DNA of 64,000 nt from assembly GCA_964453605.1 (NCBI GenBank), contig CAYVOI010000001.1, positions 804,095 to 868,094 of the forward strand, in the 5' to 3' direction. How positions within the stretch are numbered: position 1 is the first letter of the stretch; each line of letters begins with the position of its first letter. The position numbers and the translations under genes were made by a program. Below are positions 4,331-32,963 of this stretch, piece by piece. Under the pieces are notes generated by a model. That model was not told where the DNA came from and searched no databases. It saw only the letters and a program-made list of their open reading frames with translations. The DNA comes from an uncultured Gammaproteobacteria bacterium (lineage in GTDB: Bacteria > Patescibacteriota > Patescibacteriia > Veblenbacterales > UBA10138).

Positions 4331-4396
4331 GACAAGCCAGCGGGGTAAACGCTTTAGAGTTTATGTGTATTATGTGGAGGTGTAAAACACTTTTGA

Positions 4397-4426: not shown

Positions 4427-4502
4427 TCCTATACTAATTATAGCATAAACTTAGCCTTGGGGCAATGCCTCAAACCTAAACCTAGCTCTAGCTCACCGTT
4501 TT

Positions 4503-5063: not shown

Positions 5064-5180
5064 CCCGCGCTGGAGCGGAGAGGCTAGCCGAACTGTCGGT
5101 TTTTTTGTTTGGTAACACAGTGCTGACCTACTGCCTGCAAGCAGCGGGTCAGCACCTTGAAAACTACCACGCTCGGTGAG

Positions 5181-6482: not shown

Positions 6483-6509
6483 AAAAATTCAAGCTAATGA
6501 GTGCGCACG

Positions 6510-6785: not shown

Positions 6786-6804
6786 ACGTTAGTCACCACG
6801 CAGT

Positions 6805-7225: not shown

Positions 7226-7286
7226 GACTCGGGGTGAACCACCGTACTTCCCTGGTTTGCTGGCAAAAACTTACAAAAAACTGGAA

Positions 7287-7688: not shown

Positions 7689-7722
7689 ATGCGAGGGTAT
7701 TTAAAAACTTTACTCTGCATAC

Positions 7723-8275: not shown

Positions 8276-9289
8276 TCAGGCCGCAGGACTGCTCGGCTGT
8301 GTATTTCCCCCACTGGCGCGGGCGTTTACCTCGTAGCTCGTGTTGGTAGCCTCAAAAAAGTTTACCAGTTCGTATACATCGGTAGCGGTGGACATCCACT
8401 TGGCCGGGTTCGTTACCTTAAAGTGTGGCGTGAGTCCCAGTTCTTCCAAACGCCTATCAGCCACGTACTGCACGTACTGGTTCACGTAGTCAGCATTGAG
8501 GCCCAAAATGCCGTTTGGAAAGAGGTCACGGTTGTAGGCGGTTTCCAGGCCCACGCCATCTATCACAATTTGCTTGATTTCGTCGGCAAACTCTTTCGAA
8601 ACCAGTTCACCATTCTCTTCCAACGTGGTGAGTACCAGCTGAATGCCGAACTTTAGGTGGAGCGACTCGTCGCGCAGCACCCAGTTGATCATGGAACCAA
8701 AATTCCTGAGCTTGTTGCGCTGCCGGAACGACAGCATGACCATAAACCCGCTGTAAAACCAAATGCCCTCCATAACAATGTTGTAGGCCACCAGGTTGCG
8801 AATGAAATCCTTTTTCCCTTCGGGGGTGGTGACATCATACGTATCCTCGGTCATACGCTTCATGTAGCGGCCAAGAAAATCCTCTTTGGCTTTCATGGTA
8901 GGGGTTTGCATGTGCGTGTCGTAGACTTTGCTACGATCAATCGGCAATGTTTCCAGCACATATTCGAACGCCACACAGTGGTTGGCTTCTTCCCACATTT
9001 GCTTAGCCAGGTACAGGTGGCACTCGGCTGACTTGAGGTAGGGGTACACGCCGAGTGCGAGTATGCGGTTCACAATGAGCTCAGCTGGGTTGAAGAACGA
9101 CATTACAAACTGCACGGCGAAACGCTCATCCTCCGTCATCTCGGCCCAGTCGTGCAAATCTTCTTTCAGCGGAATTTCATGCGGGTACCAGGTGTTGGCA
9201 ATCGCCTGGTCGTAGAGCTTCCTGGCCCACGGGTAGAGCGACGGGTGCAGGTTAAAGTCCTCAGGCGAAGCCTTGCCGATGAGTGCCAT
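8276..9289 (-). CDS. nrdB: Ribonucleotide reductase class I small (beta, R2) subunit, ferritin-like di-iron protein.
   Basis: Di-iron ligand blocks E...EERF..QFVMSFF and E..HCVAF (ExxH). Located directly downstream of the large subunit gene. Confidence 0.9.
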   Translation of the reverse strand: MALIGKASPEDFNLHPSLYPWARKLYDQAIANTWYPHEIPLKEDLHDWAEMTEDERFAVQFVMSFFNPAELIVNRILALGVYPYLKSAECHLYLAKQMWEEANHCVAFEYVLETLPIDRSKVYDTHMQTPTMKAKEDFLGRYMKRMTEDTYDVTTPEGKKDFIRNLVAYNIVMEGIWFYSGFMVMLSFRQRNKLRNFGSMINWVLRDESLHLKFGIQLVLTTLEENGELVSKEFADEIKQIVIDGVGLETAYNRDLFPNGILGLNADYVNQYVQYVADRRLEELGLTPHFKVTNPAKWMSTATDVYELVNFFEATNTSYEVNARASGGNTQPSSPAA

Positions 9290-9319
9290 AGGAGTGAAAT
9301 GAAGCTGTATCGGACGTTC

Positions 9320-12250: not shown

Positions 12251-12310
12251 ACACGGTGAGGTTAGTTTGTTTTTTCTAAATAGAGGGAATGAGGTCAGGT
12301 GCCCGCTGGC

Positions 12311-12778
12311 TCAGCGGCGGGACTTTGGTTCACGCTTCAAGCCTTTGAGCTCCCGGGTAAAGCTCGACACGTCTTGGAAACTCCGGTACACGCTGGCGAA
12401 GCGGATGTAGGCTACCTGGTCAAAGCCCTTGAGGCGCTTCATCACCACTTCACCAATCGCCTGGGAGGTAAGCTCGGGCTGGCGCTGGCGCTGGATGTCG
12501 CGCTCGATGCGCTGGACGAGCCCGCGAAACTGCTCGGCAGTAATGCTGCGCTTTTCTAAAGAGTGCTTGAGGCCTTGCGTGAGCTTGTCTTTGCTGTACG
12601 GCTCGCGGCGGCCGTCGCGCTTTATGACCGTGAGGTCCAAGATCTCGCTCTCCTCAACCGTGGAGAAACGGAAACTGCACTTGGTGCACTCGCGCCGGCG
12701 CCTGATGCTAAAGCCGTCGGTAGCGACACGTGAATCTGTTACTTTGGTGTCGTAGTAGTTGCAGGACGGGCAGTGCAT
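12311..12778 (-). CDS. nrdR: NrdR transcriptional repressor of ribonucleotide reductase genes (zinc ribbon plus ATP cone).
   Basis: MHCPSCNYYDTKVTDSR...CTKCSFRFST zinc ribbon followed by ATP-cone VIKRDGRREPYSKDKL. It heads the nrdR-nrdA-nrdB operon. Confidence 0.95.
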   Translation of the reverse strand: MHCPSCNYYDTKVTDSRVATDGFSIRRRRECTKCSFRFSTVEESEILDLTVIKRDGRREPYSKDKLTQGLKHSLEKRSITAEQFRGLVQRIERDIQRQRQPELTSQAIGEVVMKRLKGFDQVAYIRFASVYRSFQDVSSFTRELKGLKREPKSRR

Positions 12779-18612: not shown

Positions 18613-18972
18613 CTAGGTGAAACGCGCAACCTGGAGCAGGAGCCAGGCAATCACCACCGCCGCGAGCCCCAAGAGGAGGAGGGCACCAGCCAGCATGTCT
18701 TTCAGGAGTGCGACGTGGAGGGAGAGCCGCGGCTCTATGAGGTCGAGCAAGCGCTCGAGCACCGTGTTGACCACCTCCGCCGCCAGCACGGCGGCTATGG
18801 TGAGGAGGAGCACAGCCCACCCGAGCGGTGGCAGGTGAAACCACCACCCACCACCGAGCACCACCAGCGCTACGGTAAGCTCGAGGCGAAACGAAAGCTC
18901 ACGCCGTGCCACGTAAGCTAGGCCCCGGAGTGCGTAGGTGAACTTGTGGCTAAGGGTACGGAGGTAGTTCAT
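18613..18972 (-). CDS. dgkA: Prokaryotic diacylglycerol/undecaprenol kinase (DgkA family) membrane protein.
   Basis: Three TM helices and the DgkA motif AEVVNTVLERLLDLI (compare AElLNSAIEavVDri). Follows ybeY as in many monoderm genomes. Confidence 0.8.
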   Translation of the reverse strand: MNYLRTLSHKFTYALRGLAYVARRELSFRLELTVALVVLGGGWWFHLPPLGWAVLLLTIAAVLAAEVVNTVLERLLDLIEPRLSLHVALLKDMLAGALLLLGLAAVVIAWLLLQVARFT

Positions 18973-18983
18973 AGGTGTACTGG

Positions 18984-19403
18984 TCAGCCTGAGGCCATGA
19001 GCGCGCGGTCTTCTAAGCGGCGCATGGTAGCGCGCTCCCCCTTCTGCACGTGGTCGTAGCCAGCCAGGTGGAGTAGCCCGTGCACCAGCAAGCGGTCAAG
19101 CTCGCGGCTGAGCGAGGTGCCGGCGCGGCGAGCTTGGCGCACGGCTTGCGACAGGCAAATGACGAGCTCACCCTTGATAGGAGCAGTTTGGTACGTAAAG
19201 GAGAGCACGTCGGTTGTCCAGTCGTGCCTCAGGTATCGGCGATTCAGGGAACGGCTCACGCTCGGCGTAACGTACGTCACACCCACGTCGGCAAAACGAA
19301 CCCGGCTCAACCGGCCCACGCGCTTAAGGAGCGTGCGCGTACGCGCGCCCGAGGCCCGGGGGAGCCTGAGGCCGCTCTCGTTCTTACACCAGAGGGCCGC
19401 CAT
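18984..19403 (-). CDS. ybeY: rRNA maturation endoribonuclease YbeY.
   Basis: Zn-binding signature VHGLLHLAGYDH (H-G-x-L-H-L-x-G-Y-D-H). Confidence 0.85.
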   Translation of the reverse strand: MAALWCKNESGLRLPRASGARTRTLLKRVGRLSRVRFADVGVTYVTPSVSRSLNRRYLRHDWTTDVLSFTYQTAPIKGELVICLSQAVRQARRAGTSLSRELDRLLVHGLLHLAGYDHVQKGERATMRRLEDRALMASG

Positions 19404-19412: not shown

Positions 19413-20771
19413 TTACCGGGTAGGGCTGGGGGTAGGCTGACTGGTGTTGGTGTTTACTGGCGCAGCCGGCGAGGTGAGCGTAAAGAGCTGCAGCATAGCT
19501 CTGAACAGGTGGTAGTAAGAGGCTTGGGTGTTCGTGCCGATGTTATAGCTTAAGGTGATGAGGTAGTGGTCGGTGGCCAGGTAAGCGTTTAAGCCGTCGA
19601 GCGACATAGCCCAGGTGGTACTACCCACGGTGACAGTGGGAACCTCAGCCGCCGTAAGCCCCGAGACCTGCTTAGCGTACCAGGCCGAAGCGCTGAGCTT
19701 CTCTGGGTTATCAACTACCAACACCTCCACGAACTCACTGGCGTCGGTACCGGTGAAGACTACCTCGGTGCCCTCTTTATCAGTGGCGCGCGCCAACCAG
19801 GCTTTGGGATACTTGAGGCTGTAGCCAAAGCGGTCACTCTGGTAGGTAGCGAGATAGCTCGAAGCTTCGAGCTTAGCCCCGCCGCCAACGGCGGGGTCAA
19901 ACCCGGCCGCCACCTCAGCGCCATCGGCGTAGGTATCACCATCGGTGTCAAGCTTGGCTGGGTCAGTGCCGAAGAGGTGCTCCTCGGCGTCAGTGAGGCC
20001 GTCCTGGTCAGCGTCGACGGTCGGCGAAGGCGGTGTTACCTGCCGTGGTGTACCTGGGCTGGTCGACGGTGTAGGTGTGCTGGCTGTGGCATCTACCCCT
20101 TGAGGCGTAGCCTGGTGATCGCCGGGCATAAGACCAGCCGCACCCTCTTCTAAGCGGAAGCTCAGGGTGTAGCTTGAACCATCACTGCTCAGGTAGAGGT
20201 AGTCGGCACCTCCCGGGGTGGGGTTAGCTGGCACCTGAGCCAGGTAGGTTGTACCCTGTGCCGCACTGGCGAAGCCGGCGCTCGAAAACGTTTTGGACGA
20301 TTCGCCACCAAGAACGAGGGGCAACGGACTCACCGGGTAGCGGCCACCGTTGTCAGCCGCGTAGAGCTTGAGCATAGACTGCAACGTACTCACGTCACCA
20401 TAGCGGATGCGGTCGCGCTCGGCTGGGGTGGTGCTCGGGGTGGCAGGTGCTGGTGCGGCTGGTTGGTTGGTGGTCGGGCTAACCACCGGGGTAGCCAGCG
20501 GCGAGGGTTCAGGCACTGACGGAGGAGCACTACGGAAGAAGGCGAGGTAGGTTCCACCCGCGCCAACGGCCACCAGTACTCCCACCATGAGCCACACCCA
20601 CCAGCGCTTCGGCTTACCGCCGCCCGGTTGAGGTACGGGGCCTGGCGTGGCCACGTTCCCACCTAAGGGCTGGGGCATGGTGTAAATTTCACCCCACGGT
20701 TCTGCTTTAGGCGCAAGGGGCGCTGGGTTTATCTCAGCCTCGGCGGGTTGCTTCTTAGCAAAACCAAACAT
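19413..20771 (-). CDS. Membrane-anchored Pro/Thr-rich protein with thrombospondin-type-3-like Ca-binding aspartate repeats (452 aa).
   Basis: Single TM helix (WWVWLMVGVLVAVGAGGTYLAFF). Long P/T/S-rich linker. DADQDGLTDAEEHLFGTDPAKLDTDGDTYADG (DxDxDG repeats). Globular C-terminal domain. Confidence 0.6.
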   Translation of the reverse strand: MFGFAKKQPAEAEINPAPLAPKAEPWGEIYTMPQPLGGNVATPGPVPQPGGGKPKRWWVWLMVGVLVAVGAGGTYLAFFRSAPPSVPEPSPLATPVVSPTTNQPAAPAPATPSTTPAERDRIRYGDVSTLQSMLKLYAADNGGRYPVSPLPLVLGGESSKTFSSAGFASAAQGTTYLAQVPANPTPGGADYLYLSSDGSSYTLSFRLEEGAAGLMPGDHQATPQGVDATASTPTPSTSPGTPRQVTPPSPTVDADQDGLTDAEEHLFGTDPAKLDTDGDTYADGAEVAAGFDPAVGGGAKLEASSYLATYQSDRFGYSLKYPKAWLARATDKEGTEVVFTGTDASEFVEVLVVDNPEKLSASAWYAKQVSGLTAAEVPTVTVGSTTWAMSLDGLNAYLATDHYLITLSYNIGTNTQASYYHLFRAMLQLFTLTSPAAPVNTNTSQPTPSPTR

Positions 20772-20776: not shown

Positions 20777-21409
20777 TTAGGGCTGGGTGGTTGGCAGGTT
20801 CAAGAGTTTCCCGGGGCCCGCGGGGTTGTACCCGTTGTGCACTTCCACGCCGTCGGGGTAGCCATCGCCGTCACTATCAACCTTCAGCGGATTGCTGTGG
20901 TAGATGTTCACCTCTTCACCATCGAACAGGCCGTCGCCATCGGTATCAGGGTTGTGGGGGTCAGTACCCAAGGCTTGCTCCTGCTCGTCGCTCAGACCAT
21001 CGCCGTCACTGTCGGTACCGCTGGGGGCGGGTGAGGCGGTTACGGCCGCTGGTTCAGCCGAGGTGGGGGTAGGCTGAGGAGACTGCAGCGGCGGGTTGGT
21101 GGCCGTTGGCGCAGACGACTGCGCCGAGCTGCGGTGCGACCACCACCAGTAGCCCCCCGCTAGTACTGCCCCCGCCAGCACGAGACCGCCAACCACCGCC
21201 CAGCGCAGGCCGGGGCGAGGTTCTGCCAACGGAGGCATGATGGGTACGTTCGAGGGCTGCACAGGAGCAGCCGGCGTCAGGGGCGAGACCGTCGGGCGGG
21301 GAGTAGGCGCTGCCGGCGGCAGCGTGCTCGGGGCTGAAACTGGTTCAGGCCCGGCAAAAATGTCTTCCACACCTTGGTTCGTCGAGGTACTGCCAACGTT
21401 TTCAAACAT
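20777..21409 (-). CDS. Paralogous membrane-anchored TSP3-like Ca-repeat protein (210 aa).
   Basis: Same architecture as the neighbouring gene. It has a TM helix, a Pro-rich linker, and the repeats [39 protein letters not shown]. Confidence 0.6.
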
Positions 21410-21465: not shown

Positions 21466-24400
21466 TTAATTGCCTGGCGGAATAACGGCCGCAGTGGTAA
21501 AGCTCACCACGCTCCCGAAGCTCAGGCCCTGGCTATTCTGTGCCACGGCACAGTAGCGGTAGGTGGCGCTCGAGTTCAAACCGTTCAGGGTAAAGCTGAA
21601 GGGCAGTGATGAAGCGCCACTGCCAAGGTTAGCGCTTGGGCTAGTGACATTCGGTAAGCTCGTGCAGGCGACGTTCGCTGCACCCCAGCGGAACCAGGCG
21701 GTGGTGGCCAGGCCATTGGGATTACCCTGGCCGTTGAGCCGAGCACCGGAGGTGGTAATAGATGAGGCGGGCGAGGTAGTAACACTTGGTGGGGCAGGCT
21801 GCACAAAGGTAGCTGTCACCGTAGTGTTACTGTTCATAGTAATCGTGCAGGGGCTGGTGCTGCAGCCGCCACCGCTAAACCCGGCAAAGGTTACGCCTGA
21901 CCCGGGGTTAGCCGTGAGCACCACGGCGCTACCCGCAGGGTAGGGGCCGGGGGAGGGGTTCACGGTCACCGTACTCGTAGCCGCCCCCGAGCCCTGCAAG
22001 AAAACGGTTAAGCTATAGAGCGGCGTGCTGGTAAAGGTGGCGGTGACGGTGGTAGCCCCACTGATGGTGGTGGTGCAGGGGCTGGTGCTGCAGCCGCCAC
22101 CGCTAAACCCAGCAAAGGTAGAGCCGGGGTCGGGGTTAGCGGTCAGGCTAACACTCGTGCCGGGCGGGTAGGTGTAGGTACAGGCGGCCGCACTGCAGTT
22201 GGCGTTCGGCGGGTTCACATCAATAGTTCCAGTGCCGGTACTAGCAGAGCTGCGGTTGAGGGTGAGCGTTACCGCGGTAAAGGTAGCGGTCACGGTGAGC
22301 GTAGCGTTGGTGGTGTGGCTGGCGTCCAGAGTCACTTGGCATTGGCCGTTGCTCGGGCAACTGAAGCCTGGGTCAGTGGAGGACCAACTAACGAACCCAC
22401 CTTTACTTGCCACAGCGTTGAGGGTCACCGTGCCCGGGTTGTAGGTCGCACTACAGGTAGCACCGCAATCGATTTTCGTGTCAGTGCTCGACACCGTGCC
22501 ATCGGCTCCACCGTTCAGGGTCTTTTGTACCGTGAGCTGGTAAGCGGTAAAGGTAGCCGTCACGGTAGCGTCGGTGGTGCCCATGGTAACGGTGCACTGG
22601 GTACCGACTGAGCTGGTACAGCCGGTCCAGCCAGCAAAACTGCCCACACCTGTGGTAGTGGCAGTAAGGGTGAGGGTGGTGCCGTCTTGGTACTGTGCGT
22701 TGCAATCGGGGTCACAGTTTATACCGGGGTGCGAGGGGTCGCTCGCGACGTGGCCGCTCGTGGCACCGAGCCCCGACTTGGTAACCTTCAGAGCGTGCGA
22801 GGGCGCGACCTTGAACTTGGCCTGTACCACTACGTCACTGCTGGCAGTGAACGTACAGCTCTGGCTGCCCGCGGCCGCGCAGGTGGGGTCAGCCCAGCTA
22901 TCAAAAACGTAGCTCACGCCAGCGACAGTTTCTGCTGAGGGGCTCAACGTTACGCTCGAGCCAGCCACAAAGCGCCACAGGCAGTTGTTAGTTCCGCTGG
23001 GGCAGCTCTTGCCGCCCGGGGTTGAGGTCACGTTGTGGTTAGTGGTGTCAACGGTACCGACCAGCTTCTCCACCGTAACCTTGTGGGTAAGGGCAAAGGT
23101 GGCGGTGACGGTGGTATCGCTATCCATGGTCACGTTGCAGGTGTGCGGTGGCGGGGTGGATGGGGTTGGCTGGCAGGCGCTCAAGCTCCAGCCGGTAAAA
23201 ACGGAGTCCACGTCCTCGGCCGCCGTCAGCGTTACCACCACGCTGCCGCTCTTGGGGTACGCTTCAGTACACGAGGTGCCGCAGTTTATAGCCTCGCCGT
23301 AGGGGTTGCCCAAAACGGTCGGCTGGTTACCGGTCACCGTTCCCCCACCGGTGCCGCTCTTGCGCACGGTGAGTGTGGCCTTGAGGGCGAAGGTAGCAGT
23401 CACCCTAACCCCGGCCACGAAGGGGGGGCCTAGGGCGTCAGCCGTATTCATGGTTACGCTACAAGGATCGGTACCTGAGCACGCTGGCGAGCCGGCAACG
23501 GTCCAGCCAACGAAGAGCGAATCGGCATCTGGCGTAGCGGTGAGCTTGACGATGTCCGTAGGGCTTTTCTCATACGCCTGGTCGCAGTGCGAGCCCCCTA
23601 CGCCACAGCTGATAGGGTTAGTATCGGGTAGGTTACTGGTAACTGTACCGGCACCACACTTGCCTGTAACAGGGTCACAGGCCCCGTACATAGCTGTGCT
23701 GACGCTCAAACTGGAACGCAGAGCAAACGTAGCAGTAATAGTAGTGTTACTAGTGATATTTACTGTACACGTACCAGTACCACCGCAATCAGCCGCACTC
23801 GCCGGACTCGCCACCCAACCGACAAAGTAGTAGAGAGAAATGTCGCTATCCTTTGGGTAGTGGCCAAGCACTACGGTAGTGCCCCTGATGTAAGTAGTAG
23901 TAGCAGTCGTACAGGCTGAGCCACAGTTTATCTTCGGCGTAGATTCGTTACTCGTCACGGTGCCCTGTGACCCGTTGTTGAGTACCTTGTTCACCGTTAA
24001 CGTATACGTTACCGCGGTAAAGCTGGCAGTTACTGAACGCGCCTGGTCCATGGTTACGGGACAGGTGCCTACCCCAGGGCAGCTGAAGCCGGGGTCAGGG
24101 GAGGACCAACCAGTAAACGTTGAATCGGTATTGGCGCGCGCGGTCAGGGTAACAGAAGTTCCACCGCTGTAGCTGGCGGCACACGACGAACCGCAAGTAA
24201 TGCCGGGGTGGGCGGCATCGCTTGTTACCGTACCGCTGCCAACCCCGCCCTTTTGCACGGTGAGCGCGTAGCTGGGGCGGGCAAAGGTAGCGGCTACATT
24301 GGTAATGGCAGTTACGGTGACCGTGCAGCTCGAGCTACTACCCGTACAGGCTCCAGTCCAACCGGAGAACACTGAACCGGTGCCTGGGTTGGCGGTGAGG

Positions 24401-27400
24401 GTAACCTGGGTGCCACTGCTGAAGGACGCGCTACAGGGCGAAATAGCCGTGCCACAGCTGATGCCGGCGGGTGAACTCGTTACCGTGGCGCTGGCACCGG
24501 CGGCTATGGTGGCGGTGACGTTGAGCGCGTACTGCGGTACAAAGCTAGCTGTTACCTGCTGGTTGGCAGCTGGCATGGTGAACGTACAATCACCCAGTCC
24601 GCTACACAGGCTGCTGCTCCAACCGCTAAATACCTGCCCGCCGGTCGAGGACATGTGGAGCGTGACCGAACTACCGCTCACGTAGCTCTGGGTGCAGGGG
24701 CTGCTGCTGGTGCAGGGGGAGCCGTTGGCTGTTACCGTACCGGCACCCACTACCTTAACATTCAAGCTGTAAGAAATTTGTGCAAAGGTGGCGGAGACCG
24801 ACACCGTACTACCAGACAGCGTCAGTGGACAGGTAGCACTACTAGCAGCTGAAGCGCAAGCTCCACCCCAGCTCAAGAACCGGCTCCCTGGCTGCGGCGT
24901 GGCCGTGAGCGTTACCCGGCTCCCCGGCGTGTACTGCGCCAAGCAGGTTGAGCCACAGCTTATCTTGGGTGAGGCTTCACTGCTCGCTACCACACCAAAG
25001 GTCGAGGGTGTGCTGATGGAGAGGTTGGTGTACTGGTAGTTAATGGTACGCACCACGCTCTCACAAGCATCGCCCGGAGGAATGGTAATGGCATCGCCTG
25101 ACCCCTTCCACCAGGTGACGTTCTTGAACTCGGCGTTAAAGCTCAGGGTAGCGTTGGTTGAGCTTATAGCTTTATACTGGTACACGTGCGAACCGTCGGG
25201 GCACTCGAACGCTTTGGTGCTCTGGTTCCAGCAGGTGGACTGATCAAACCCAGCACTCGCACTGCACTGCGGCCCGGCCGGTGGAGCGGGTAGGTTAAAG
25301 GTATTAACGGGGTCAATTGGTAAGCTGCCGCCGAGATCGCTCGCCAGGTTTTGCTGCCACGACGACCAGCGACTCACGCTGCGCCCAGCCAGGAACGAAC
25401 CAGCGGTAAGCTGCGGCACGGTGTTGGTGTGCTGAGCAGTGTAGCCGTCGAGCCTGGCCTGCACCACGCTCATGTCGGTAAGGCGCCTGAGGTCGCGCTG
25501 AATTTCGTCCTTACTGGTAGACACATTGGTGTTGAACGTCCAGCTTGAAGCCAGCTCTTGGTAGAGTGCCGTGGTGGTGGGGCCGGCCCCCAGGCTGTAG
25601 CCAAAGACGTACAGATCAGTCTCAAAGTTGTCATCAGGTTGGCCAACGGTGTGGGGCTGACCAGTACGGCACCCTGGCCCCGACGAGAGATGACAAAAGT
25701 TGGTAGCCGACACGTAGAGCGTCGAGCCGTCTTGCCCCGCGGCGTAGCCATCCACCGTGGTATCGCTCAGGCTACCCTTAACAATGTCTGGCCGACTCAG
25801 GTACCACTGGCGGGGCGAAAGAGTTAAGAGCTGGTTCCGGTAGATTCTGAGGCCCAGCACGTCGCTATTCACGTCGTTGGTGAGAAAGTACTCGCGCGAC
25901 ACATCACCCGTACCGCTGCCACCGCCTACCACACTGAGCGACGGCAGCACGTTACCAGACGTGGCCTGGAGCACCACCGAGTCAAAGTAAATCGGGTTCA
26001 GGGTGGCGGGTTGAGCGCTGGCGTTGGCGTACAAGCAGATGGTGTAATCTTTCCTGGGGCCACTGTCGAACGCTACCTGGAGCTTCTGCCAGCCCACCGC
26101 GGGAGCGGACAGCGTGCTGGCGTAGCGAAAATCAGTCCGGCACGAGGTGTCGCTCGTCATAACCATGGTTGCACCAACTATCGGACTGTTGGCGGGCAGG
26201 TAGACCAAGGCGGAAGCTACGTAGCTGGTATGCTGTGTCAGCCCGGTAATTTGCCGAGTCAGGGTGTACTGGCCATTGGCTACGTCGGCCTGTGTTGCCA
26301 CGTGGGTAGCGGCCGCGCTCATAGTATCCCCGGCTGTACTCGGCCCAGGCGGAGACGGCGTCACCGCCGGCTGCCAGCCCGCTCCACCCTGCACCGTCCA
26401 CCCCGTTAAACCAGAACTAAAGCTGTCATTGCTCGTCACGAAGTTGCCACCCGTTGCTGCCACGGTACCTGCTCGGCAATAGCGCAGGCGGAAGTGGTAG
26501 TCGTCGTCCTTGAACTCCCAGGGCAGCTCGCACAGGTACACCTCGAGCGAAGCCTCCGCACGAGCAGACCCAATGGTAGGACCAGCGTCACCTGTCACCT
26601 TGAGCGTGGCTTGGCCGTTGCGCGCTGCCGCGCTGACCGTGGCTTGATTGGCTGAAGAGGTGTAGCCCACCACGTTGGCCGGGTCGTTCTTGCTCCAGGT
26701 GTAGGTGACCCCGCTCAGCAGGCTGCCATCAGGCGCTAGGGCTGAGGCGGTAAAGGTTTGGCTCTGACCGGCCGTACTAAACGTATAGCTAGCTGGCATT
26801 ATGCTGACGTGGTCAAGCTTGCAGATATTAGAGCCGGTGCCAAAGCTCAGCTGTGCATCGCTCGGCATGGTGCCACCGCTCGTAGTCTTCAAACCGCTGA
26901 CCCCGCCCACCATCGTCAGGGTGAAGTTTTGCAGTGGCAGTAGCGGAGAGTTTGGGCTGACCAGCACCACATTGGGCGAAGAAGCAGACACCCGAACGCT
27001 CACCGGTATAGGCAGCGATGTCAGGGGTGGCGGTTGGTTCACCATGTCAAGCCTGACGGTGGTAGCGGTCACGCTGGCGGCGCTCAGGGGTTGATCAAAA
27101 GTCAGCTGCAGCTCGACATTGCGACAGACGTTGGCAGCGCCTGCAGCAGGCACCGAGGAAACAAAATTGAGCGGCGCTGGCGGTAGCACCAGGCCTACAG
27201 TGTTGACGTTCAGGTAGAGTGGGTTGCTGACCAAGGGTACAGTTTGGTAGTTTGGTACCCAGCTACCAATACAGGTACTGCCGAGTTGGATGCCCGAACA
27301 CTTCAGCCCCACCTGCACCGTGGCTACGCGCTGCAGGGTGACGTCACCAGAACGGGTAGTTGGATTAGCATTCACAGTTACTTGAGTGGAGCTCCACGTA

Positions 27401-30400
27401 CCAACTGGCGCGGGATCAATGTTCGCGAGTACCACCTTGTGGCTTACATCCGGGGGTACGCTGCTGAACGCATCGCCGTAGAGCGTTACGGTGGTAGGTA
27501 AATTAGTGATGGGTCCGCTCAGATTATTCGGTGGTGCAAACGTAAGCTTACATAATCCCGGTATGAGCGGCAGGTTGCTATCATAATGGAAGGTCTGACT
27601 GTGAGTGACGTCAGTGGTAAGGCCAGCAGCAGTGGTAACGGTCACCAAAGCATCACCGCTACCCGCCGGGGCCTTAACCACAATTTCGGTATCAGTCCAG
27701 TGACCGCAGTAGAGCGGCAGTGGAGCAGAGAGTGTGCCAGCAAACGACACGGTACAAGGCGCACCTGAGGTGCTACCGAGTGAGGCACAAGTACCAAAGT
27801 TGCCTCCCCTCACTGTCACCCAAGTGCCCGCCGGGCCGGTTGAGGGCGTAAGGCTAGTAATGAACGGCTCGCCGGAGAAGGTAACGCCGTTTGAGGTTTG
27901 AAGGTCTGGCGACCCGATAGTGCCATAATTCACAGTCACCCTAAGGGGCCCCGTACGCACACTGGCCGGAATGTTGGGGGTAGTAATAGTAATTTGCTTG
28001 TCTGACCAATTTACTACCTGCCCCGCCCCCATGAGCTTAAACTTGTTGGGGTAGGTAACGTATGGTGGAACCGAACCGTCGGATGGGTTCTCGTTCAGGC
28101 TAGCGCTCGGCACACAGGGCGTAGAGCTACCGCCGCACACCAAGCTCGCAAAACTATTGGATATGACATCGGTATGGTTGTCGGTAAAATGACGTCCGGT
28201 GATGACAACGGTGGTATTAGCAGGCCCAGCCGTCGGGGCAATGGAACAAATGCCAGGGCGGATGGTTGAAGTAACGGTAAAGGTGGGATGGAGTGAGGCG
28301 GCGTTGGCGGCTGAAGAGCCCGCGCCATTTACTACCTCCACGGTCTTCGTGCCCGTAAGACCATCGGGCACCACCACCACAATTTCGGTATCAGTCCAGT
28401 GACCACAGTCAGCAATGGGAGCAACTACACCACCAAACTTTACCTGTCCCCCACCACCAAAATCCTGACCAGTTATGGTAACAACGGTTGCGGCGTCGCC
28501 CGTGGCGTTACCGTCCACTGGCGTCATGCCGGTTATCTTGGGTAGTGTCACCGGCCCAGGCGGCGTTCCAGGCTGGACACTATAAGGCGCAGTGTTAGAT
28601 TCAAGGTTACTTGAGTTGACAACCGTCACCAAGCTAGTTGGCACGCTGATGCTACTCGGGGTAGTAGCGGTAATTTGCTTATCTGCCCACGAACCAGCCA
28701 GCGGGGTAACGGCAGCGGTCTGGTTGGCTGGGCTAATGCTACCGTTGTAATACTTCACCTGGCCCACCGCGGCACCGAACTGGTTACCTTTCAAGGTAAC
28801 GAGTGCTTTTGTTGGATCAGTCAGGTCTGATTGATAGACCGAGCTCGGCGTGGCGCTGCAGAGCCCTGGTGGCTGTATGGCACTGTTGACTGTGTATAAA
28901 GCACTCGCATTACTCTGAACGCCATCTGTTCGCTTGACCCACAGGGGTCCGTTGGTAGCGTCGTCAGCTGTAGAGGCGGTAGAAGTATCTGGCACTTCGC
29001 TTAAGATATGTGTGTTGGTCCAGGTCGGCGCTGAACAAAGCGCTGGGTTAGGCCAGGTACCCGGCACGGGCGGGGTGCCGCTGTGGGTGTAGAGTACTGT
29101 GCCCTGGCTGTTGCCAAAGTAGCAACCGTCAATACCAACCCAGGTACCAATGGCGCCAGTAGTGGGGCCTATACTCTTAATAACCGGCGTACAGGTGCCA
29201 AGAGAGCAGACAGAGCCTGTGCACAGTCCTGCTTGCGTGCAATCTGGAGTACTGCTACAAGCCGTGTCGGAGAGGTACAGGCTATTAGTATCGCTAAAGC
29301 CTGCGGCAGCAGCCTTGATGGTGATAGGCGGCGAGGGGTCGGGGAAAGTGTTAGCCGCTACCTGCTTTTTTGAAGTATCAGCCGGTGCGGTGGGGGCAGG
29401 GTTAATAACAGCATACGAGTTATTGGTCCCCGACTTGGTCCAGCTCCAGCTGTATGATGCCGGGTTCAGCGCGTTACAGTTGTTAGCCTGAGGAAAAGCT
29501 TGGTAGTCTACAGTATCGGTGGGTGTACGGATATAGGCTGGCTGTGTACTCCCTGGGCTAAGTTGCACGCTAGAGAGGTTGCAGACACCCCCGCCAGTTT
29601 GGAAGTGCCATGTATAGGGGAAACCCATGGGCTCACTGGCTGGCGGCGCACTCTTTACCGTGCCGTCGATGGTTACCTGGAACCACTGGCTTGAGGCAAG
29701 CGAGGCGGGGGTAAAGGTAAAGCCCGAGTTAGCCGGGAAGCTGAAAGTCCCAGCCACATTGGTGGTGGGTGCGTTACAGGTAGTTTGATTGCTCCCTGGA
29801 CCACACTGCAACACATGAACACTAGAGCTGCTAATGGTGCTCTGGTCCATGGCGCGGTCGAACCGCGCCATAATGAGCGCGTTGGTACAGGCGGTGGCGG
29901 GGTTAGCAGGGTCGTAAGCCGGGGGACTTGGGCTCTGCAGGTTGGTACTGCAGGCTAAGTCTTGCACCACGCTCGGCGCCGGCTGACACGGCACGTTAAA
30001 GTAGAGTGGATTACTCGCGGGCAGGTTAGGAAGCTGCACGCTAATGGGGTAGGCACCGTTACCAAAAGAAGAGTCAATCACAAAACCACTAATGCTAACG
30101 TCTGACCACGGGCCAGATGGACTTAAAGTGCGTGACCCCACTACTACTGAATTGGGTACAGGCGATGTGTTGCCAAACCGAACGCCGGTGAGCGTCATAT
30201 TAGGAGTGGAACCGCTCATGGCCTTACACATCACCGGGCCAATCGAACATAAGCCCGGCCCCACCGGCGAGTTATCAACTATGAAAGTTTGGGTATTGCT
30301 CTTGTTGCCGCTGGCATCAACCACCTGCACTTTGTACGAACCCTGCGGCAGGGTGGTTGGTATGCGTATCACAATCTGCGAACTACCCCACGAAGTAGCA

Positions 30401-32049
30401 CACGGGAACTCTGCGTCGGTTGGGCCTCCAGAGTTGATGAGCTTCACCTTGGCCAGCCCAGTGTGGGTGCCAAACAGCGCGCCGTCCAAAGTTACAAACT
30501 GCCCTGGACCCCCATTGCCTGGACCCAAGCCCCTGAGGTACGGGCTCAGGGTATCGACATAGCCTGGGTTGCTGTAGTTGGCACCCACTTGTACTAGCAC
30601 CTGGGTGTTGGGGGGGACAAAGTAGCGAGACAACGGCACGCCGGCGGGAATGTTCACCTTGATCTGTTCAGGGGTAGGGTTCAACGAATTCAATTGGCCG
30701 CTACAGGCAGTTACGCCATCAAGCGTTTTTCCATTCCAACACAAAACATTAGGGTTACCACTAAGGCTGTTGCTGTCAGCGTCTAAACCATTGAACACCC
30801 CTTCACCAGTCGAGGCAAAGTTTTGGCCAGTGATGGTTATCCGATTACCATAGTAGCCAGAAGCTGGCGTTATGTTGCTAATCTCCGGCGTGCAGTACTC
30901 CGTGTCGCCAGTGGTAAAGGTCCAACTGGTCGCCGCCAACGCGTTGTTACAGGCATCGGTAATGCCGCTTGAGAGCTTGACGGTGTAGGTTTGGTTTTGC
31001 TGGAGCGGTGCTTGCGGGTACACGGTGAATGAATTGAAATTGCTCCCGGGCACTATCTGCCCCAAGGCCACGGGGTTGCCAGCGGCGTCAAACAGCTTTA
31101 TGTTGGCTGGAGTAAGGGTAGTTATGTTCATCTCAGCGGAGAAGGTGGCTTGAATAGCAGTGCGGAGGCAAGCGTTGGCACCCGTGGGCCACTGGCTTGT
31201 TACTGTTGGCGCGCTGGTAGAGGTTTGGCTACCAGTGGTAAAGCTCCACACCTTGTCTGAGCTCAGCACAGCAGCTGTAGCTGGGGGTGTTGGTATGTTC
31301 GTAACCCCACTCGAACCACTCACAATGGTGGCTTGGTAGGTAGTGTTTTTGTTAAAGTCCGGGTGTTGCAGGGAGAAGCCTGGGCCTACGGTGGCGCTAC
31401 CAAAATTGGTAAAGGTAACTGTGGCGTTGGTAGTGGTGTTCTTCACTACCACGGTGGAGCTGTTAACGCTCGCTGGGTCCACGTTCTGGTTGAAGAGCGC
31501 CTGCACATTAGCACACAGCATGACGTTGCTAGCATTGTCGCTTGGGTCAACCGCCTGAACCGTAAACCCAATGTTCCCTCCCCCCGGCAAACAGCCTGGC
31601 CCCGTACAACCTCCGCCAGGCCCGCCCCCACCACTCGTCGTACCAGTAGCGCTCGAGAGTAAACTGAAAATGAATGCCGCAATACCGTAGGCCGCGAAAA
31701 TAATCGCCAGACCAATAACACCTGCGCCCATCATGCGCTTGGCCCTCGCAATTTGCTCCTCGTTACCCCGGCTGGTCATCCAGATGTAGCCAGCGTAAAC
31801 AATAATGGCAATGGCGATAACACCTAAGAAGCCAAGGATGATGTTAATAACCTTGGCCACCGTCTGCACAATGGGTATGTTGGTGCCCAGGTTAGTTGCA
31901 CCACCAAAATTAGTAAAGCCGAAGTTAGCCTCACCACTAAAACCAGCCGAGAGTACTGGCCTCAAAGCCAACACCAAAAGCACCAGGGCGGCCGAAGTCA
32001 CCAACACCCTCTGGTGACTCTTGAACCACTGCCTGGCACTCTGGAACAT
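21466..32049 (-). CDS. Giant surface protein (3527 aa). N-terminal signal plus a two-helix hydrophobic hairpin, then about 25 repeats of a C-x-C Ig-like module (divergent InlB B-repeat type).
   Basis: Uninterrupted 10.6-kb ORF. N-terminus has TM helices flanking a charged loop RGNEEQIARAKRMM. Modules such as GSVFSGWTGACTGSSSSCTVTVTAITNVAATF, FTGWSSPDPGFSCPGVGTCPVTMDQARSVTASF and FAGFSGGGCSTSPCTTTISGATTVTATF repeat throughout. Confidence 0.85.
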   Translation of the reverse strand: MFQSARQWFKSHQRVLVTSAALVLLVLALRPVLSAGFSGEANFGFTNFGGATNLGTNIPIVQTVAKVINIILGFLGVIAIAIIVYAGYIWMTSRGNEEQIARAKRMMGAGVIGLAIIFAAYGIAAFIFSLLSSATGTTSGGGGPGGGCTGPGCLPGGGNIGFTVQAVDPSDNASNVMLCANVQALFNQNVDPASVNSSTVVVKNTTTNATVTFTNFGSATVGPGFSLQHPDFNKNTTYQATIVSGSSGVTNIPTPPATAAVLSSDKVWSFTTGSQTSTSAPTVTSQWPTGANACLRTAIQATFSAEMNITTLTPANIKLFDAAGNPVALGQIVPGSNFNSFTVYPQAPLQQNQTYTVKLSSGITDACNNALAATSWTFTTGDTEYCTPEISNITPASGYYGNRITITGQNFASTGEGVFNGLDADSNSLSGNPNVLCWNGKTLDGVTACSGQLNSLNPTPEQIKVNIPAGVPLSRYFVPPNTQVLVQVGANYSNPGYVDTLSPYLRGLGPGNGGPGQFVTLDGALFGTHTGLAKVKLINSGGPTDAEFPCATSWGSSQIVIRIPTTLPQGSYKVQVVDASGNKSNTQTFIVDNSPVGPGLCSIGPVMCKAMSGSTPNMTLTGVRFGNTSPVPNSVVVGSRTLSPSGPWSDVSISGFVIDSSFGNGAYPISVQLPNLPASNPLYFNVPCQPAPSVVQDLACSTNLQSPSPPAYDPANPATACTNALIMARFDRAMDQSTISSSSVHVLQCGPGSNQTTCNAPTTNVAGTFSFPANSGFTFTPASLASSQWFQVTIDGTVKSAPPASEPMGFPYTWHFQTGGGVCNLSSVQLSPGSTQPAYIRTPTDTVDYQAFPQANNCNALNPASYSWSWTKSGTNNSYAVINPAPTAPADTSKKQVAANTFPDPSPPITIKAAAAGFSDTNSLYLSDTACSSTPDCTQAGLCTGSVCSLGTCTPVIKSIGPTTGAIGTWVGIDGCYFGNSQGTVLYTHSGTPPVPGTWPNPALCSAPTWTNTHILSEVPDTSTASTADDATNGPLWVKRTDGVQSNASALYTVNSAIQPPGLCSATPSSVYQSDLTDPTKALVTLKGNQFGAAVGQVKYYNGSISPANQTAAVTPLAGSWADKQITATTPSSISVPTSLVTVVNSSNLESNTAPYSVQPGTPPGPVTLPKITGMTPVDGNATGDAATVVTITGQDFGGGGQVKFGGVVAPIADCGHWTDTEIVVVVPDGLTGTKTVEVVNGAGSSAANAASLHPTFTVTSTIRPGICSIAPTAGPANTTVVITGRHFTDNHTDVISNSFASLVCGGSSTPCVPSASLNENPSDGSVPPYVTYPNKFKLMGAGQVVNWSDKQITITTPNIPASVRTGPLRVTVNYGTIGSPDLQTSNGVTFSGEPFITSLTPSTGPAGTWVTVRGGNFGTCASLGSTSGAPCTVSFAGTLSAPLPLYCGHWTDTEIVVKAPAGSGDALVTVTTAAGLTTDVTHSQTFHYDSNLPLIPGLCKLTFAPPNNLSGPITNLPTTVTLYGDAFSSVPPDVSHKVVLANIDPAPVGTWSSTQVTVNANPTTRSGDVTLQRVATVQVGLKCSGIQLGSTCIGSWVPNYQTVPLVSNPLYLNVNTVGLVLPPAPLNFVSSVPAAGAANVCRNVELQLTFDQPLSAASVTATTVRLDMVNQPPPLTSLPIPVSVRVSASSPNVVLVSPNSPLLPLQNFTLTMVGGVSGLKTTSGGTMPSDAQLSFGTGSNICKLDHVSIMPASYTFSTAGQSQTFTASALAPDGSLLSGVTYTWSKNDPANVVGYTSSANQATVSAAARNGQATLKVTGDAGPTIGSARAEASLEVYLCELPWEFKDDDYHFRLRYCRAGTVAATGGNFVTSNDSFSSGLTGWTVQGGAGWQPAVTPSPPGPSTAGDTMSAAATHVATQADVANGQYTLTRQITGLTQHTSYVASALVYLPANSPIVGATMVMTSDTSCRTDFRYASTLSAPAVGWQKLQVAFDSGPRKDYTICLYANASAQPATLNPIYFDSVVLQATSGNVLPSLSVVGGGSGTGDVSREYFLTNDVNSDVLGLRIYRNQLLTLSPRQWYLSRPDIVKGSLSDTTVDGYAAGQDGSTLYVSATNFCHLSSGPGCRTGQPHTVGQPDDNFETDLYVFGYSLGAGPTTTALYQELASSWTFNTNVSTSKDEIQRDLRRLTDMSVVQARLDGYTAQHTNTVPQLTAGSFLAGRSVSRWSSWQQNLASDLGGSLPIDPVNTFNLPAPPAGPQCSASAGFDQSTCWNQSTKAFECPDGSHVYQYKAISSTNATLSFNAEFKNVTWWKGSGDAITIPPGDACESVVRTINYQYTNLSISTPSTFGVVASSEASPKISCGSTCLAQYTPGSRVTLTATPQPGSRFLSWGGACASAASSATCPLTLSGSTVSVSATFAQISYSLNVKVVGAGTVTANGSPCTSSSPCTQSYVSGSSVTLHMSSTGGQVFSGWSSSLCSGLGDCTFTMPAANQQVTASFVPQYALNVTATIAAGASATVTSSPAGISCGTAISPCSASFSSGTQVTLTANPGTGSVFSGWTGACTGSSSSCTVTVTAITNVAATFARPSYALTVQKGGVGSGTVTSDAAHPGITCGSSCAASYSGGTSVTLTARANTDSTFTGWSSPDPGFSCPGVGTCPVTMDQARSVTASFTAVTYTLTVNKVLNNGSQGTVTSNESTPKINCGSACTTATTTYIRGTTVVLGHYPKDSDISLYYFVGWVASPASAADCGGTGTCTVNITSNTTITATFALRSSLSVSTAMYGACDPVTGKCGAGTVTSNLPDTNPISCGVGGSHCDQAYEKSPTDIVKLTATPDADSLFVGWTVAGSPACSGTDPCSVTMNTADALGPPFVAGVRVTATFALKATLTVRKSGTGGGTVTGNQPTVLGNPYGEAINCGTSCTEAYPKSGSVVVTLTAAEDVDSVFTGWSLSACQPTPSTPPPHTCNVTMDSDTTVTATFALTHKVTVEKLVGTVDTTNHNVTSTPGGKSCPSGTNNCLWRFVAGSSVTLSPSAETVAGVSYVFDSWADPTCAAAGSQSCTFTASSDVVVQAKFKVAPSHALKVTKSGLGATSGHVASDPSHPGINCDPDCNAQYQDGTTLTLTATTTGVGSFAGWTGCTSSVGTQCTVTMGTTDATVTATFTAYQLTVQKTLNGGADGTVSSTDTKIDCGATCSATYNPGTVTLNAVASKGGFVSWSSTDPGFSCPSNGQCQVTLDASHTTNATLTVTATFTAVTLTLNRSSASTGTGTIDVNPPNANCSAAACTYTYPPGTSVSLTANPDPGSTFAGFSGGGCSTSPCTTTISGATTVTATFTSTPLYSLTVFLQGSGAATSTVTVNPSPGPYPAGSAVVLTANPGSGVTFAGFSGGGCSTSPCTITMNSNTTVTATFVQPAPPSVTTSPASSITTSGARLNGQGNPNGLATTAWFRWGAANVACTSLPNVTSPSANLGSGASSLPFSFTLNGLNSSATYRYCAVAQNSQGLSFGSVVSFTTAAVIPPGN

Positions 32050-32060: not shown

Positions 32061-32513
32061 TTAGGTGTTTAAGACTTGTTTGACGGCAGCACTTACTGTT
32101 CCACCATCGGCAGCGCCAGCGTAGTGCGCCAGTACTGCTTTGGTGAGCTGGCCCATGCCTTTCACGTCGGTAATGCCAAGCTCAGCTTGAAACTTTTTCA
32201 CCGTCGCGAGCACATCGTCGGGGCTCGGCGCTTGGGGCAGGTAACGTGCTACCACTTCAGCCTCAGCCTGCTCTTGGGCAGCGAGCTCAGCGCGGCCTCC
32301 CTGCGCATAGAGCTTCATGGCCTCCTGCCGCTTCTTAAGCTCGCGCCGGAACACGACCAGCACATCTGGCTCGCTGAGCTCTCCCTTAGGCCCTTTGGCT
32401 ATGGCCTCGTTACCAAGGGCAGACTTTATTAGCCTCAGCACGCCAAGTTCCGTGCTACGAGCACGCTGGGCGGCCGCAATGTCAGCCTCGAGGCGCTGCT
32501 CAAGTTTGGTCAT
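32061..32513 (-). CDS. GatB/YqeY-domain protein.
   Basis: 150 aa all-helical protein with a YqeY-like C-terminal block (ELGITDVKGMGQLTKAVL). Conserved rpsU-yqeY neighbourhood. Confidence 0.8.
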   Translation of the reverse strand: MTKLEQRLEADIAAAQRARSTELGVLRLIKSALGNEAIAKGPKGELSEPDVLVVFRRELKKRQEAMKLYAQGGRAELAAQEQAEAEVVARYLPQAPSPDDVLATVKKFQAELGITDVKGMGQLTKAVLAHYAGAADGGTVSAAVKQVLNT

Positions 32514-32535: not shown

Positions 32536-32811
32536 CTAGCGCAGAGCGCGCTTGATCATGGCTATAACTTTAGGGTTGCGGCTGCGTAAATCTTCTTCTT
32601 CTACGAGCCCGGTTTTCCTAAGGTACTCTTTACGGTTCCGAATAGTCATGCGGCGCAGGGCATCCACGCGCTGCTCACGCTTGGTTTTGGCACCCTCGTA
32701 GAACCGCCGCTTCTTGGTTTGCAAAATCAAACCCGACTGCTGCACGCGTTTGGAGAACCGCCGCAGCATGCTTTCTACCGATTCGCCGTCTTTCCGTTTC
32801 ACTTCTATCAC
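32536..32811 (-). CDS. rpsU: 30S ribosomal protein S21 (with a C-terminal basic extension).
   Basis: IEVKRKDGESVESMLRRFSKRVQQSGLILQTKKRRFYEG matches the S21 pattern V.V...E....ALRRFKR...G.L.E.RRR.FYEKP. Confidence 0.8.
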   Translation of the reverse strand: MIEVKRKDGESVESMLRRFSKRVQQSGLILQTKKRRFYEGAKTKREQRVDALRRMTIRNRKEYLRKTGLVEEEDLRSRNPKVIAMIKRALR

Positions 32812-32963
32812 GGGGAAACACCTTCCTTTCTAGTAAGATGATGCTAATACAAGCTCTTATATTATAGCTTATTTTTACCCTCTCGTCAACTACAGAATAT
32901 CTTAACTCTACTTAAAGGAAAGCCACTCTCCGGCGAGAGTGGCTAGCTACCTAAAGCACTGCA

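Follow-up and report, generated by a model that had tools for sequence, protein, structure and literature searches.

Positions 804,095 to 868,094 of contig CAYVOI010000001.1 (assembly GCA_964453605.1, placed by GTDB in the Veblenbacterales of the Patescibacteriota), a 64-kb stretch referred to below as the window, contain a gene (hereafter the giant) whose product joins a complete VirB2-like pilin to a 3390-amino-acid (aa) ectodomain of surface-protein modules. The ORF (open reading frame) list and translation confirmed it to be one unbroken frame of 3527 aa plus stop, as an earlier reading of the window from its sequence alone had stated. The fusion and its two neighbours, which encode the TSP3-repeat proteins TSP3a and TSP3b, keep their place throughout a clade of Patescibacteria; within the giant, the pilin hairpin is under the strongest constraint and the ectodomain evolves fast. 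We consider it fairly probable that the giant is an extracellular adhesive fibre, tethered by its complete N-terminal VirB2-type pilin module and with the two TSP3 proteins as partners.

Scanned on its own, the N-terminal region (aa 1-135) matched the Pfam family PF18895 (T4SS_pilin; T4SS, type IV secretion system) with 28.7 bits, i.e. above the gathering score of 26.6. In the scan of the whole protein, which returned Flg_new_2 with 218.7 bits and Big_5 with 106.6 bits, both T4SS_pilin (22.9 bits, cut-off 26.6) and TrbC/VirB2 (23.2 bits) stayed sub-threshold. Against PF04956 (TrbC/VirB2), aa 1-135 scored 26.6 bits (E 7.2e-6), under the gathering score of 27.9, and the NCBIfam model NF045849 (Mbov_0395 pilin-like conjugal transfer protein) gave 26.5 bits, under its cut-off of 40. 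A word-indexed search with aa 1-158 retrieved only PF18895 proteins of 124-167 aa from Patescibacteria, at identities of up to 69%. Without a gap, aa 40-138 of the giant align with aa 25-123 of a groundwater-metagenome pilin of 124 aa (69% identity, 85% similarity); the alignment reaches the last residue of that pilin and thus covers the whole mature pilin. The invariant and near-invariant positions of an alignment of 57 small pilins (alignment A2) are all kept in the giant, and a profile built from these sequences scored 143 bits against the giant ORF.

Hydropathy analysis (Kyte-Doolittle) indicated hydrophobic segments at aa 11-39, 58-93 and 105-135 only, and an AF2 model made with the small-pilin alignment placed helices at residues 6-28 (leader), 60-92 and 97-134, with a pLDDT of 81-90 over residues 61-130 and a disordered Gly-rich linker behind the hairpin. 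Both agree with the signal-like helix and the two long hydrophobic helices around a short charged loop that the sequence-only reading had described, and its comparison to VirB2/TrbC pilins turned out to be stronger than claimed, given the PF18895 match and the gapless identity to a mature pilin. The cleavage site VLSA↓G was placed by alignment with the A-x-A↓Q site of small pilins, and the hairpin loop carries the motif WMTxxGNEE..AK. The class III signal peptide motif of type IV pili (T4P), G↓F/M-x-x-x-E, is not present at the N-terminus of the giant, which has a VirB2-type hairpin instead.

Comparison of alignment A2 with Agrobacterium tumefaciens VirB2 (sequence entered by hand) by hhalign yielded an E-value of 5.5e-5 and a probability of 66%, pairing the ILG...WM helix and the second helix with their counterparts. 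Together with the PF04956 score, this is consistent with remote homology to canonical VirB2/TrbC rather than with membership of that family. A Foldseek search of the PDB with the hairpin model returned generic helical hairpins only (E above 2), and the small-pilin profile did not retrieve VirB2 or TraA from the PDB sequences; for so short a hairpin, both searches say little about pilin membership. In size and surroundings the giant departs from PF18895 pilins: these are small and free-standing (about 100-170 aa), whereas the giant measures 3527 aa, and where such pilins occur in arrays or near virB4, that of the giant is the only pilin module in the window.

Behind the hairpin, Pfam scans of pieces of the protein and hidden Markov models (HMMs) built from its own units resolved 25 modules, comprising 4 Big_5, 9 TIG-like and 12 InlB B-repeat (InlB-B) units, all of them module types typical of surface proteins. 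The ectodomain contains 2.8% cysteine and 25% serine plus threonine. While the PF18998 match (218.7 bits) covers eight stretches, the own-repeat HMM finds 12 InlB-B units, with a mean pairwise identity of 37% and a maximum of 61%. The sequence-only reading had counted about 25 C-x-C Ig-like modules in what it labelled an InlB-B-repeat protein: the total stands, but only 12 modules are Cys-pair InlB B-repeats, and the label suits the C-terminal third and not the rest of the protein, in which a 310-aa domain had been missed. Tandem Repeats Finder detected nothing in the DNA of the giant gene, where the longest near-identical repeat measures 34 nt (97% identity), and a collapse of repeats during assembly is therefore unlikely. 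Recent expansion, for which a repeat-unit alignment had been suggested as a check, is rejected on the absence of tandem DNA repeats together with the low average identity of the InlB-B units.

No hydrophobic segment follows aa 135, nor is there a C-terminal sorting signal or membrane anchor. The giant is thus not of the LPXTG/sortase type, its sequence ending in ...TTAAVIPPGN. It is not an RTX adhesin of a type I secretion system (T1SS) either, as Pfam scans of the whole protein and of its pieces found no HemolysinCabind or related family and no T1SS genes are adjacent.

The overlooked domain, termed domain X, is conserved and non-repetitive and is the hallmark of these pilin-fused giants. Aligned over 14 giants (alignment A1), it shows 24 invariant columns, and its AF2 model reached a pLDDT of 82 and a pTM of 0.80. 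Searches found no Pfam family, no PDB sequence and no PDB or BFVD fold matching it at E below 0.001; LpqN and Mtc28 came up as folds with E-values of 0.03-0.1 and TM-scores of 0.2-0.3, too weak for use. Its homologues were drawn from the phmmer search with the pilin module (see below), as low-complexity words dominated a word-indexed search with aa 1870-2345, which gave no homologue. An HMM of domain X weakly matched the C-terminal domain of TSP3b with an E-value of 1.5e-4, aligning aa about 330-420 of TSP3b with aa 2045-2145 of the giant (the N-subdomain). This hints at an alpha/beta module common to the two proteins, with the LpqN/Mtc28 fold matches insignificant and a PsbP match in TSP3b weak. 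A likeness of the second half of domain X and of a TSP3b segment to the T4P/GspG head (RD..R..D...L..Y...P) was dropped, as no tool backed it. The preceding region, aa 1866-2030, has no Pfam match in the giant; going by its sequence pattern, it is possibly a carbohydrate-binding jelly roll, which is a guess. A relative, P0152, carries a CBM_4_9 domain (PF02018) at some point of its sequence, but does not align with the giant at aa 1866-2030.

An exhaustive phmmer search with the 135-aa module against 1.84 billion representative proteins yielded 21,529 proteins with an E-value limit of 1e-3, of which 4,408 remained with a limit of 1e-10. Among the best 150 of these 21,529 representatives, 54 are 200 aa or shorter, 18 exceed 1000 aa and carry a single N-terminal hairpin, and many are tandem 'poly-pilins'. 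The latter (P0137, P0138, P0144, P0176, P0265) have one signal peptide followed by 4 to ~14 PF18895 hairpins; in P0137 (427 aa), which was checked by residue, every hairpin has its own GNEE..AK loop. The closest relative of the giant, P0136, has 3473 aa and is 50% identical to it along a collinear stretch of 3415 aa, and P0152, P0188, P0154, P0161, P0149, P0205 and P0180 show the same domain order, domain X included. In shorter members, domain X is the C-terminal domain. Exact-sequence look-up in the assembly collection gave no match for the giant protein and none for P0004.

Five exact-sequence look-ups, together with GTDB species genomes scanned for domain X by means of a five-sequence alignment, led to 20 related loci in Uhrbacteria, Veblenbacteria, Falkowbacteria, Kerfeldbacteria and other Patescibacteria. 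The giant gene is included in 19 of the 20, and domain X is present in the giants of these 19; the pilin fusion is intact in 18 of 19 giants whose N-terminus lies on the contig. Where the contig allows, the order reads (lepB-hisS-)rpsU-yqeY-[optional 600-700-aa pilin+Big_5]-[giant]-TSP3a(-TSP3a)-TSP3b-ybeY-dgkA-ftsA-ftsZ, with TSP3a and TSP3b conserved downstream of the giant in all related loci and TSP3a directly following it. This gene order is kept around the barely alignable, VWA-bearing giants P0195 and P0244 and in genomes whose FtsZ is just 53-73% identical to that of the window. The giants themselves differ by lineage, some having VWA domains and others InlB-B arrays, and range from 1803 to 3692 aa. 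The shorter pilin fusion that part of the clade has between yqeY and its giant (a hairpin with Big_5, ~590-700 aa; locus L005, 2904-5015; locus L006, 7923-10004; loci L014-L019) is absent from the window's lineage. In locus L019, the giant is split into ORFs of 1712 aa and 1534 aa.

As the same slot is occupied across such diverged genomes, the module is old and belongs to the core of this Patescibacteria clade, handed down by vertical descent rather than acquired by insertion. The recurrence of the fusion across loci argues against an artefact. The sequence-only reading had correctly named the flanking pairs rpsU-yqeY and ybeY-dgkA and the two TSP3 genes between them, as Pfam matches and ORFs confirmed, and its link to episymbiotic, streamlined bacteria fits the named relatives, all of which are Patescibacteria. 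Its further proposals, i.e. that the giant had been inserted into the cluster and that this was a Firmicutes-type cluster with phoH replaced, do not survive the comparison: the whole module is syntenic across the clade in 20 assemblies, and the yqeY-ybeY slot is the same down to an FtsZ identity of 53%.

Within the giant, conservation is uneven. The hairpin is the most conserved region in all six global orthologue alignments (51-79% identity), with domain X coming next in four of them (39-63%). Conservation is lower in the signal peptide (15-30%, the closest orthologue excepted) and in most Ig arrays (~30-48% in the majority of alignments). In the closest genome (locus L002), FtsZ, FtsA and S21 are 95%, 88% and 93% identical to those of the window and the giant only 50%, the pattern expected for a surface protein under diversifying pressure. 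The giant's hairpin is as close to free-standing pilins (60-69% identity) as to the hairpins of other giants. The nearest small pilins, which share one groundwater sample with L002, are encoded in arrays of three to four genes, and virB4 was not found within 10 kb of these arrays. In loci L022/L023, an array of three 124-aa pilins, the small pilins nearest to the giant's hairpin, is directly followed by 4.4 kb without an ORF of 90 aa or more (about 3540-7930), which may be an rRNA operon.

In the window, rpsU to dgkA lie on one strand with intergenic gaps of 5-56 nt, in the order rpsU, yqeY, giant, TSP3a, TSP3b, ybeY and dgkA, followed by ftsA, ftsZ, nrdR and a ribonucleotide reductase (RNR) operon; lepB and hisS are located upstream of the rpsU cluster. 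A terminator-like hairpin (32921-32944) precedes a promoter-like match, the candidate start of a transcription unit that would include the giant, and the giant is probably co-transcribed with rpsU-yqeY. TSP3a and TSP3b both start with a proline-rich N-terminus, followed by positive charges and a single membrane helix; their TSP3 repeats, being C-terminal to this helix, are presumably extracellular. The coordinates of all these features are collected in Table 1.

Table 1. Layout of the giant gene and its neighbours in the window (aa numbering refers to the giant).
Feature	Position	Strand	Basis
Whole giant gene	21466..32049	-	ORF list, translation; full-length orthologue P0136, 50% identity over 3415 aa
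Signal peptide, aa 1-35, predicted cleavage VLSA↓G	31945..32049	-	Hydrophobic aa 11-39; AF2 helix 6-28
Mature VirB2-like pilin module PF18895, aa 36-138	31636..31944	-	Pre-helix segment, helix 1, loop RGNEEQIARAKR, helix 2
Gly/Ser/Thr-rich linker with CTGPGC, aa 139-165	31555..31635	-	Sequence; model pLDDT ~50
Two Big_5 Ig-like domains, aa 166-385	30895..31554	-	Pfam PF13205, 90.9 bits, 2 stretches
Three TIG/IPT-like modules, aa 388-700	29950..30888	-	Pfam PF01833 and HMM from the protein's own units
Third Big_5 and unassigned Cys-rich segment, aa 701-954	29188..29949	-	PF13205, E 2.2e-9
Six TIG/IPT-like modules, aa 955-1625	27175..29187	-	Pfam PF01833 and own-unit HMM
Fourth Big_5 and unassigned Ig-like segment, aa 1626-1865	26455..27174	-	PF13205, E 1.9e-5
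Unassigned beta-rich region, aa 1866-2030	25960..26454	-	Sequence pattern only
Domain X, aa 2031-2340, conserved, non-repeat	25030..25959	-	Alignment A1, AF2 model
Twelve InlB B-repeat (Flg_new_2) modules, two Cys pairs each, aa 2348-3418	21796..25008	-	PF18998 and own-unit HMM
C-terminal Fn3-like domain, aa 3421-3527	21469..21789	-	Weak PF16656 match, E 0.009
rpsU	32536-32811	-	S21 ORF
yqeY	32061-32513	-	PF09424; 11 nt from giant
TSP3a, single-pass membrane protein, three Ca-binding TSP3 repeats, presumably outside	20777..21409	-	PF18884, 83.7 bits
TSP3b, single-pass membrane protein, one TSP3 repeat, C-terminal domain weakly related to the N-subdomain of domain X	19413..20771	-	PF18884, 26.6 bits; weak PsbP match
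ybeY	18984-19403	-	PF02130
dgkA	18613-18972	-	PF01219
Sigma-70-like promoter match TTGACG-17-TATAAT, 11/12, upstream of rpsU	32861..32889	-	Consensus scan only

Elsewhere in the window, a 991-aa protein (1355-4330, minus strand) has a signal anchor, three InlB-B modules and Fn3 domains, and is without pilin module and domain X. A truncated ORF at the window start (2-1354, minus strand; 451 aa visible) contains a membrane helix and has no Pfam match, and its visible 451 aa show no detectable similarity to the giant or to the 991-aa protein. Of the paralogous family proposed by the sequence-only reading, the repeat module shared with the 991-aa gene is thus borne out, but that protein has an ordinary signal anchor and the partial gene, said to carry the same module, is unrelated. 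Behind ftsZ, the RNR genes (8276-12778, minus strand) encode nrdR, a class I large subunit (976 aa, two ATP-cone stretches) and the small subunit; at the same position, locus L004 has an NrdD-type enzyme with a radical-SAM activase and locus L003 a 764-aa RNR_Alpha-type protein, so that the RNR class has been exchanged inside a conserved neighbourhood.

Farther off, 51568-61541 is a probable integrated mobile element: a large serine recombinase gene (51599-53140) abuts a tRNA-Met (51568-51642), and the stretch further holds a Prim-Pol/AAA_25 primase-helicase (53969-55777), several ORFs without Pfam match, a low-GC part at 56-60 kb and a second tRNA-Met (61465-61541). The 45-nt 3′ parts of the tRNA-Met genes, compared in the search for att-like repeats around this recombinase island, are only 84% alike and leave its boundaries undefined. 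On the plus strand, 56640-56755 hold a full-length LOOT RNA (Rfam RF03000), which scored 85.9 bits where the gathering score is 46.4; its 3′ end lies just within the start of an ORF for a trypsin-like peptidase (56723-57655), and its stretch has ~42% G+C compared to 50-63% elsewhere in the window.

Based on these features, the giant would be exported by Sec and trimmed by signal peptidase I, which would remove aa 1-35 by cutting after A35. The two pilin helices would then insert as a hairpin in an N-out/C-out orientation with the positive loop RGNEEQIARAKR in the cytoplasm, and the C-terminal 3390 residues should lie outside the cell because of the positive-inside rule and the known VirB2/TraA topology. 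The Gly-rich linker and 25 or more beta-sandwich modules could form a stalk of ~100 nm, assuming about 4 nm per Ig-like domain, with domain X and perhaps the carbohydrate-binding-like region, located at about two thirds of its length, as the likely ligand-binding parts. The two TSP3 membrane proteins may provide a Ca-dependent base or partner, TSP3b with its domain X subdomain, and the assembly would probably bring the epibiotic cell into contact with its host or with other surfaces. As for the hairpin itself, we hold a role as anchor only to be a little short of an even chance, incorporation into a pilus to be a somewhat smaller prospect, and some other role to be smaller still. A strongly conserved hairpin that is nearly identical to real pilins speaks for co-polymerisation with small pilins by a T4SS, whereas the bulk of the ectodomain and the lack of nearby T4SS genes favour a membrane anchor only.

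Several points weigh against an adhesive fibre as pictured here. No T4SS family (virB4, virB6, virD4) is represented among the proteins of the window, and no T4SS gene lies within 10 kb in the 19 related loci. There is no obvious Shine-Dalgarno sequence ahead of the giant's ATG. Domain X has no recognisable fold, which makes its binding role a guess, and export, topology, cleavage, binding and expression of the giant are all predicted. Finally, strict conservation beside ribosomal and cell-division genes also fits a structural role in the envelope.

The last point leads to the view that the giant is a structural envelope component, i.e. an S-layer-like (surface-layer-like) coat or a wall-spanning scaffold made constitutively with the neighbouring ribosomal and division genes. 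Its fixed place between rpsU-yqeY and ybeY-dgkA-ftsA-ftsZ in every related locus, the tight one-strand gene spacing with a promoter-like site ahead of rpsU, the Ca-binding TSP3 partners and the Ser/Thr-rich composition would all suit such a component. However, the ectodomain diverges far faster than the neighbouring genes, and domain content and length vary by lineage (VWA versus InlB-B arrays; 1803-3692 aa). Known S-layer proteins, moreover, form lattices and are far smaller than the giant, rather than being long Ig-like arrays, and we regard an envelope role as improbable. Two further accounts fare worse. That the giant is a local paralogous adhesin which lately entered a Firmicutes-type cluster and took the place of phoH would agree with the flanking genes, with the InlB-B modules common to the 991-aa gene and with the position of phoH between yqeY and ybeY in Bacillus; yet all relatives are Patescibacteria, the module is syntenic in relatives with FtsZ identities down to 53%, neither pilin module nor domain X is present in the 991-aa protein, and the partial ORF is unrelated. 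The insertion is hence already contradicted by synteny, and very little weight remains on this account. That a small pilin gene was wrongly joined to a large downstream gene, or that repeats were collapsed or expanded, is a legitimate worry, since repeat-rich long ORFs in metagenome assemblies are error-prone and the gene of L019 is split into two ORFs. Still, hairpin and domain X stand in one ORF in 18 independent assemblies from various studies, the orthologue P0136 is collinear along 3415 aa, the DNA contains neither tandem repeats nor any repeat above 34 nt at 97% identity, and the twelve InlB-B units have a mean identity of only 37%; an artefact is thus largely refuted, and we give it scarcely any credence.

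The most serious competitor of a simply tethered fibre takes the hairpin at face value: a VirB4-dependent T4SS would extract it from the membrane and co-polymerise it with small PF18895 pilins, so that the pilus would carry the ectodomain (if the giant primes assembly, most plausibly at its tip) as the adhesin that the T4SS otherwise seems to lack. The giant contains a full mature pilin, 60-69% identical to free-standing ones and equally close to the hairpins of other giants, in which every invariant residue of the small-pilin family is kept. The hairpin with its WMTxxGNEE..AK loop is the most conserved part of the protein, more than a mere anchor would need, and one groundwater sample yielded both the nearest small pilins and the closest orthologous giant. 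Topology would allow an extension at the C-terminus, which lies on the outer face of VirB2/TraA pili. On the other hand, a 3390-aa appendage is impossible on every subunit of a helical pilus, no T4SS genes occur near the locus in 19 assemblies or near the most similar small-pilin arrays, and the head-to-tail cyclisation of VirB2/TrbC is impossible for a fusion. We are aware of no characterised VirB2-type pilin that bears an additional domain. For T4P there is a precedent in the modular minor pilins (PMC8179133). On balance, we treat co-polymerisation as a tentative alternative, and are likewise doubtful of the wider proposal that VirB2-type pilins, hitherto seen as small subunits of a single domain, exist in Patescibacteria as 'modular pilins' and that the T4SS incorporates the giant, probably as a priming or tip subunit, as its host-recognition adhesin; the giant may nonetheless be the missing adhesin of the essential Patescibacteria T4SS. 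A fibre tethered by its pilin module remains the reading we prefer.

How ultra-small Patescibacteria recognise and attach to their hosts is a central open question, and a pilin joined to a ~100-nm array of binding modules is a concrete adhesin candidate, now defined as a three-gene module of the giant and two TSP3 proteins. If it is incorporated by the T4SS, the giant would be the host-recognition adhesin of a secretion system essential to epibiotic life; if the hairpin merely anchors, it would still be a novel way for monoderm bacteria to anchor giant surface proteins. The VirB2 hairpin can serve as a modular building block, as it occurs both in N-terminal fusions of 600-3700 aa and in tandem poly-pilins. 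Such modular use would change pilin-family annotation, because matches are now counted merely as 'VirB2 homologues'.

A survey by Quinonero-Coronel et al. (2025) described the T4SS of Patescibacteria as a relative of monoderm conjugation systems, found VirB2-like pilins (PF04956, PF18895) in 1,948 assemblies, with arrays of 2-11 pilin genes, and detected no adhesins such as PrgB in Patescibacteria (PMC12102498); its text makes no mention of fused or giant pilins (PMC12102498). Wang et al. (2023) showed T4SS and pilin array to be essential to the epibiotic growth of Southlakia (PMC10633639), and PF18895 pilins belong to that T4SS (PMC10633639, PMC12102498). A 2025 review stressed the potential for conjugative pili elaboration in a monoderm, and modular minor pilins have been described for T4P, not for VirB2-type pilins (PMC8179133). 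The literature retrieved on PF18895, T4SS_pilin or TrbC in the Candidate Phyla Radiation (CPR) comprised the 2025 survey, the 2023 study, the review and a structure-clustering preprint only, and in the searchable literature, i.e. outside subscription-only work, no description of pilin-giant fusions was found. As far as can be searched, the giant is thus an apparently undescribed modular member of the Patescibacteria VirB2-like pilin family.

Among known systems, the PF18895 pilins of Patescibacteria (arrays of Southlakia epibionticum and Nanosynbacter lyticus TM7x) come closest. The N-terminal 138 aa of the giant are a full member of this family, sharing signal peptide, pre-helix segment, two hydrophobic helices and GNEE..AK loop at 60-69% identity. 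Such pilins are described as proteins of about 120-170 aa encoded in arrays of 2-11 genes, often near virB4 (PMC12102498), whereas the giant has 3390 extra residues and is a single gene in a housekeeping cluster without a T4SS gene nearby. With canonical VirB2/TrbC/TraA (PF04956), it shares the helix-loop-helix plan after a long leader, at a PF04956 score below the gathering score. Those pilins serve diderm systems and are cyclised or N-acetylated, and we know of no canonical conjugative pilin with appended domains. PrgB/Asc10 of Gram-positive conjugative T4SSs could match the giant in role, as a contact adhesin for a monoderm-type T4SS, but has no sequence relationship to it, is LPXTG-anchored and is encoded in the T4SS operon. 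The modular minor pilins of T4P (Streptococcus sanguinis PilB, PilC) follow the same design of a polymerisable pilin with a C-terminal adhesive module (PMC8179133, PMC9934059); in fold and machinery the two are nevertheless unrelated, the T4P pilins having a class III signal peptide and a single alpha-1 helix in place of the VirB2 hairpin, and their grafted module is one domain where that of the giant spans 3390 residues. Finally, SiiE, LapA/MpIBP, Ebh and the 7651-aa adhesin of Mobiluncus project a binding region on long strings of Ig-like domains, as the giant would, and Ca-binding elements are involved in both cases. While those adhesins are held by T1SS retention modules or by LPXTG/sortase, the only anchor of the giant is its N-terminal pilin hairpin.

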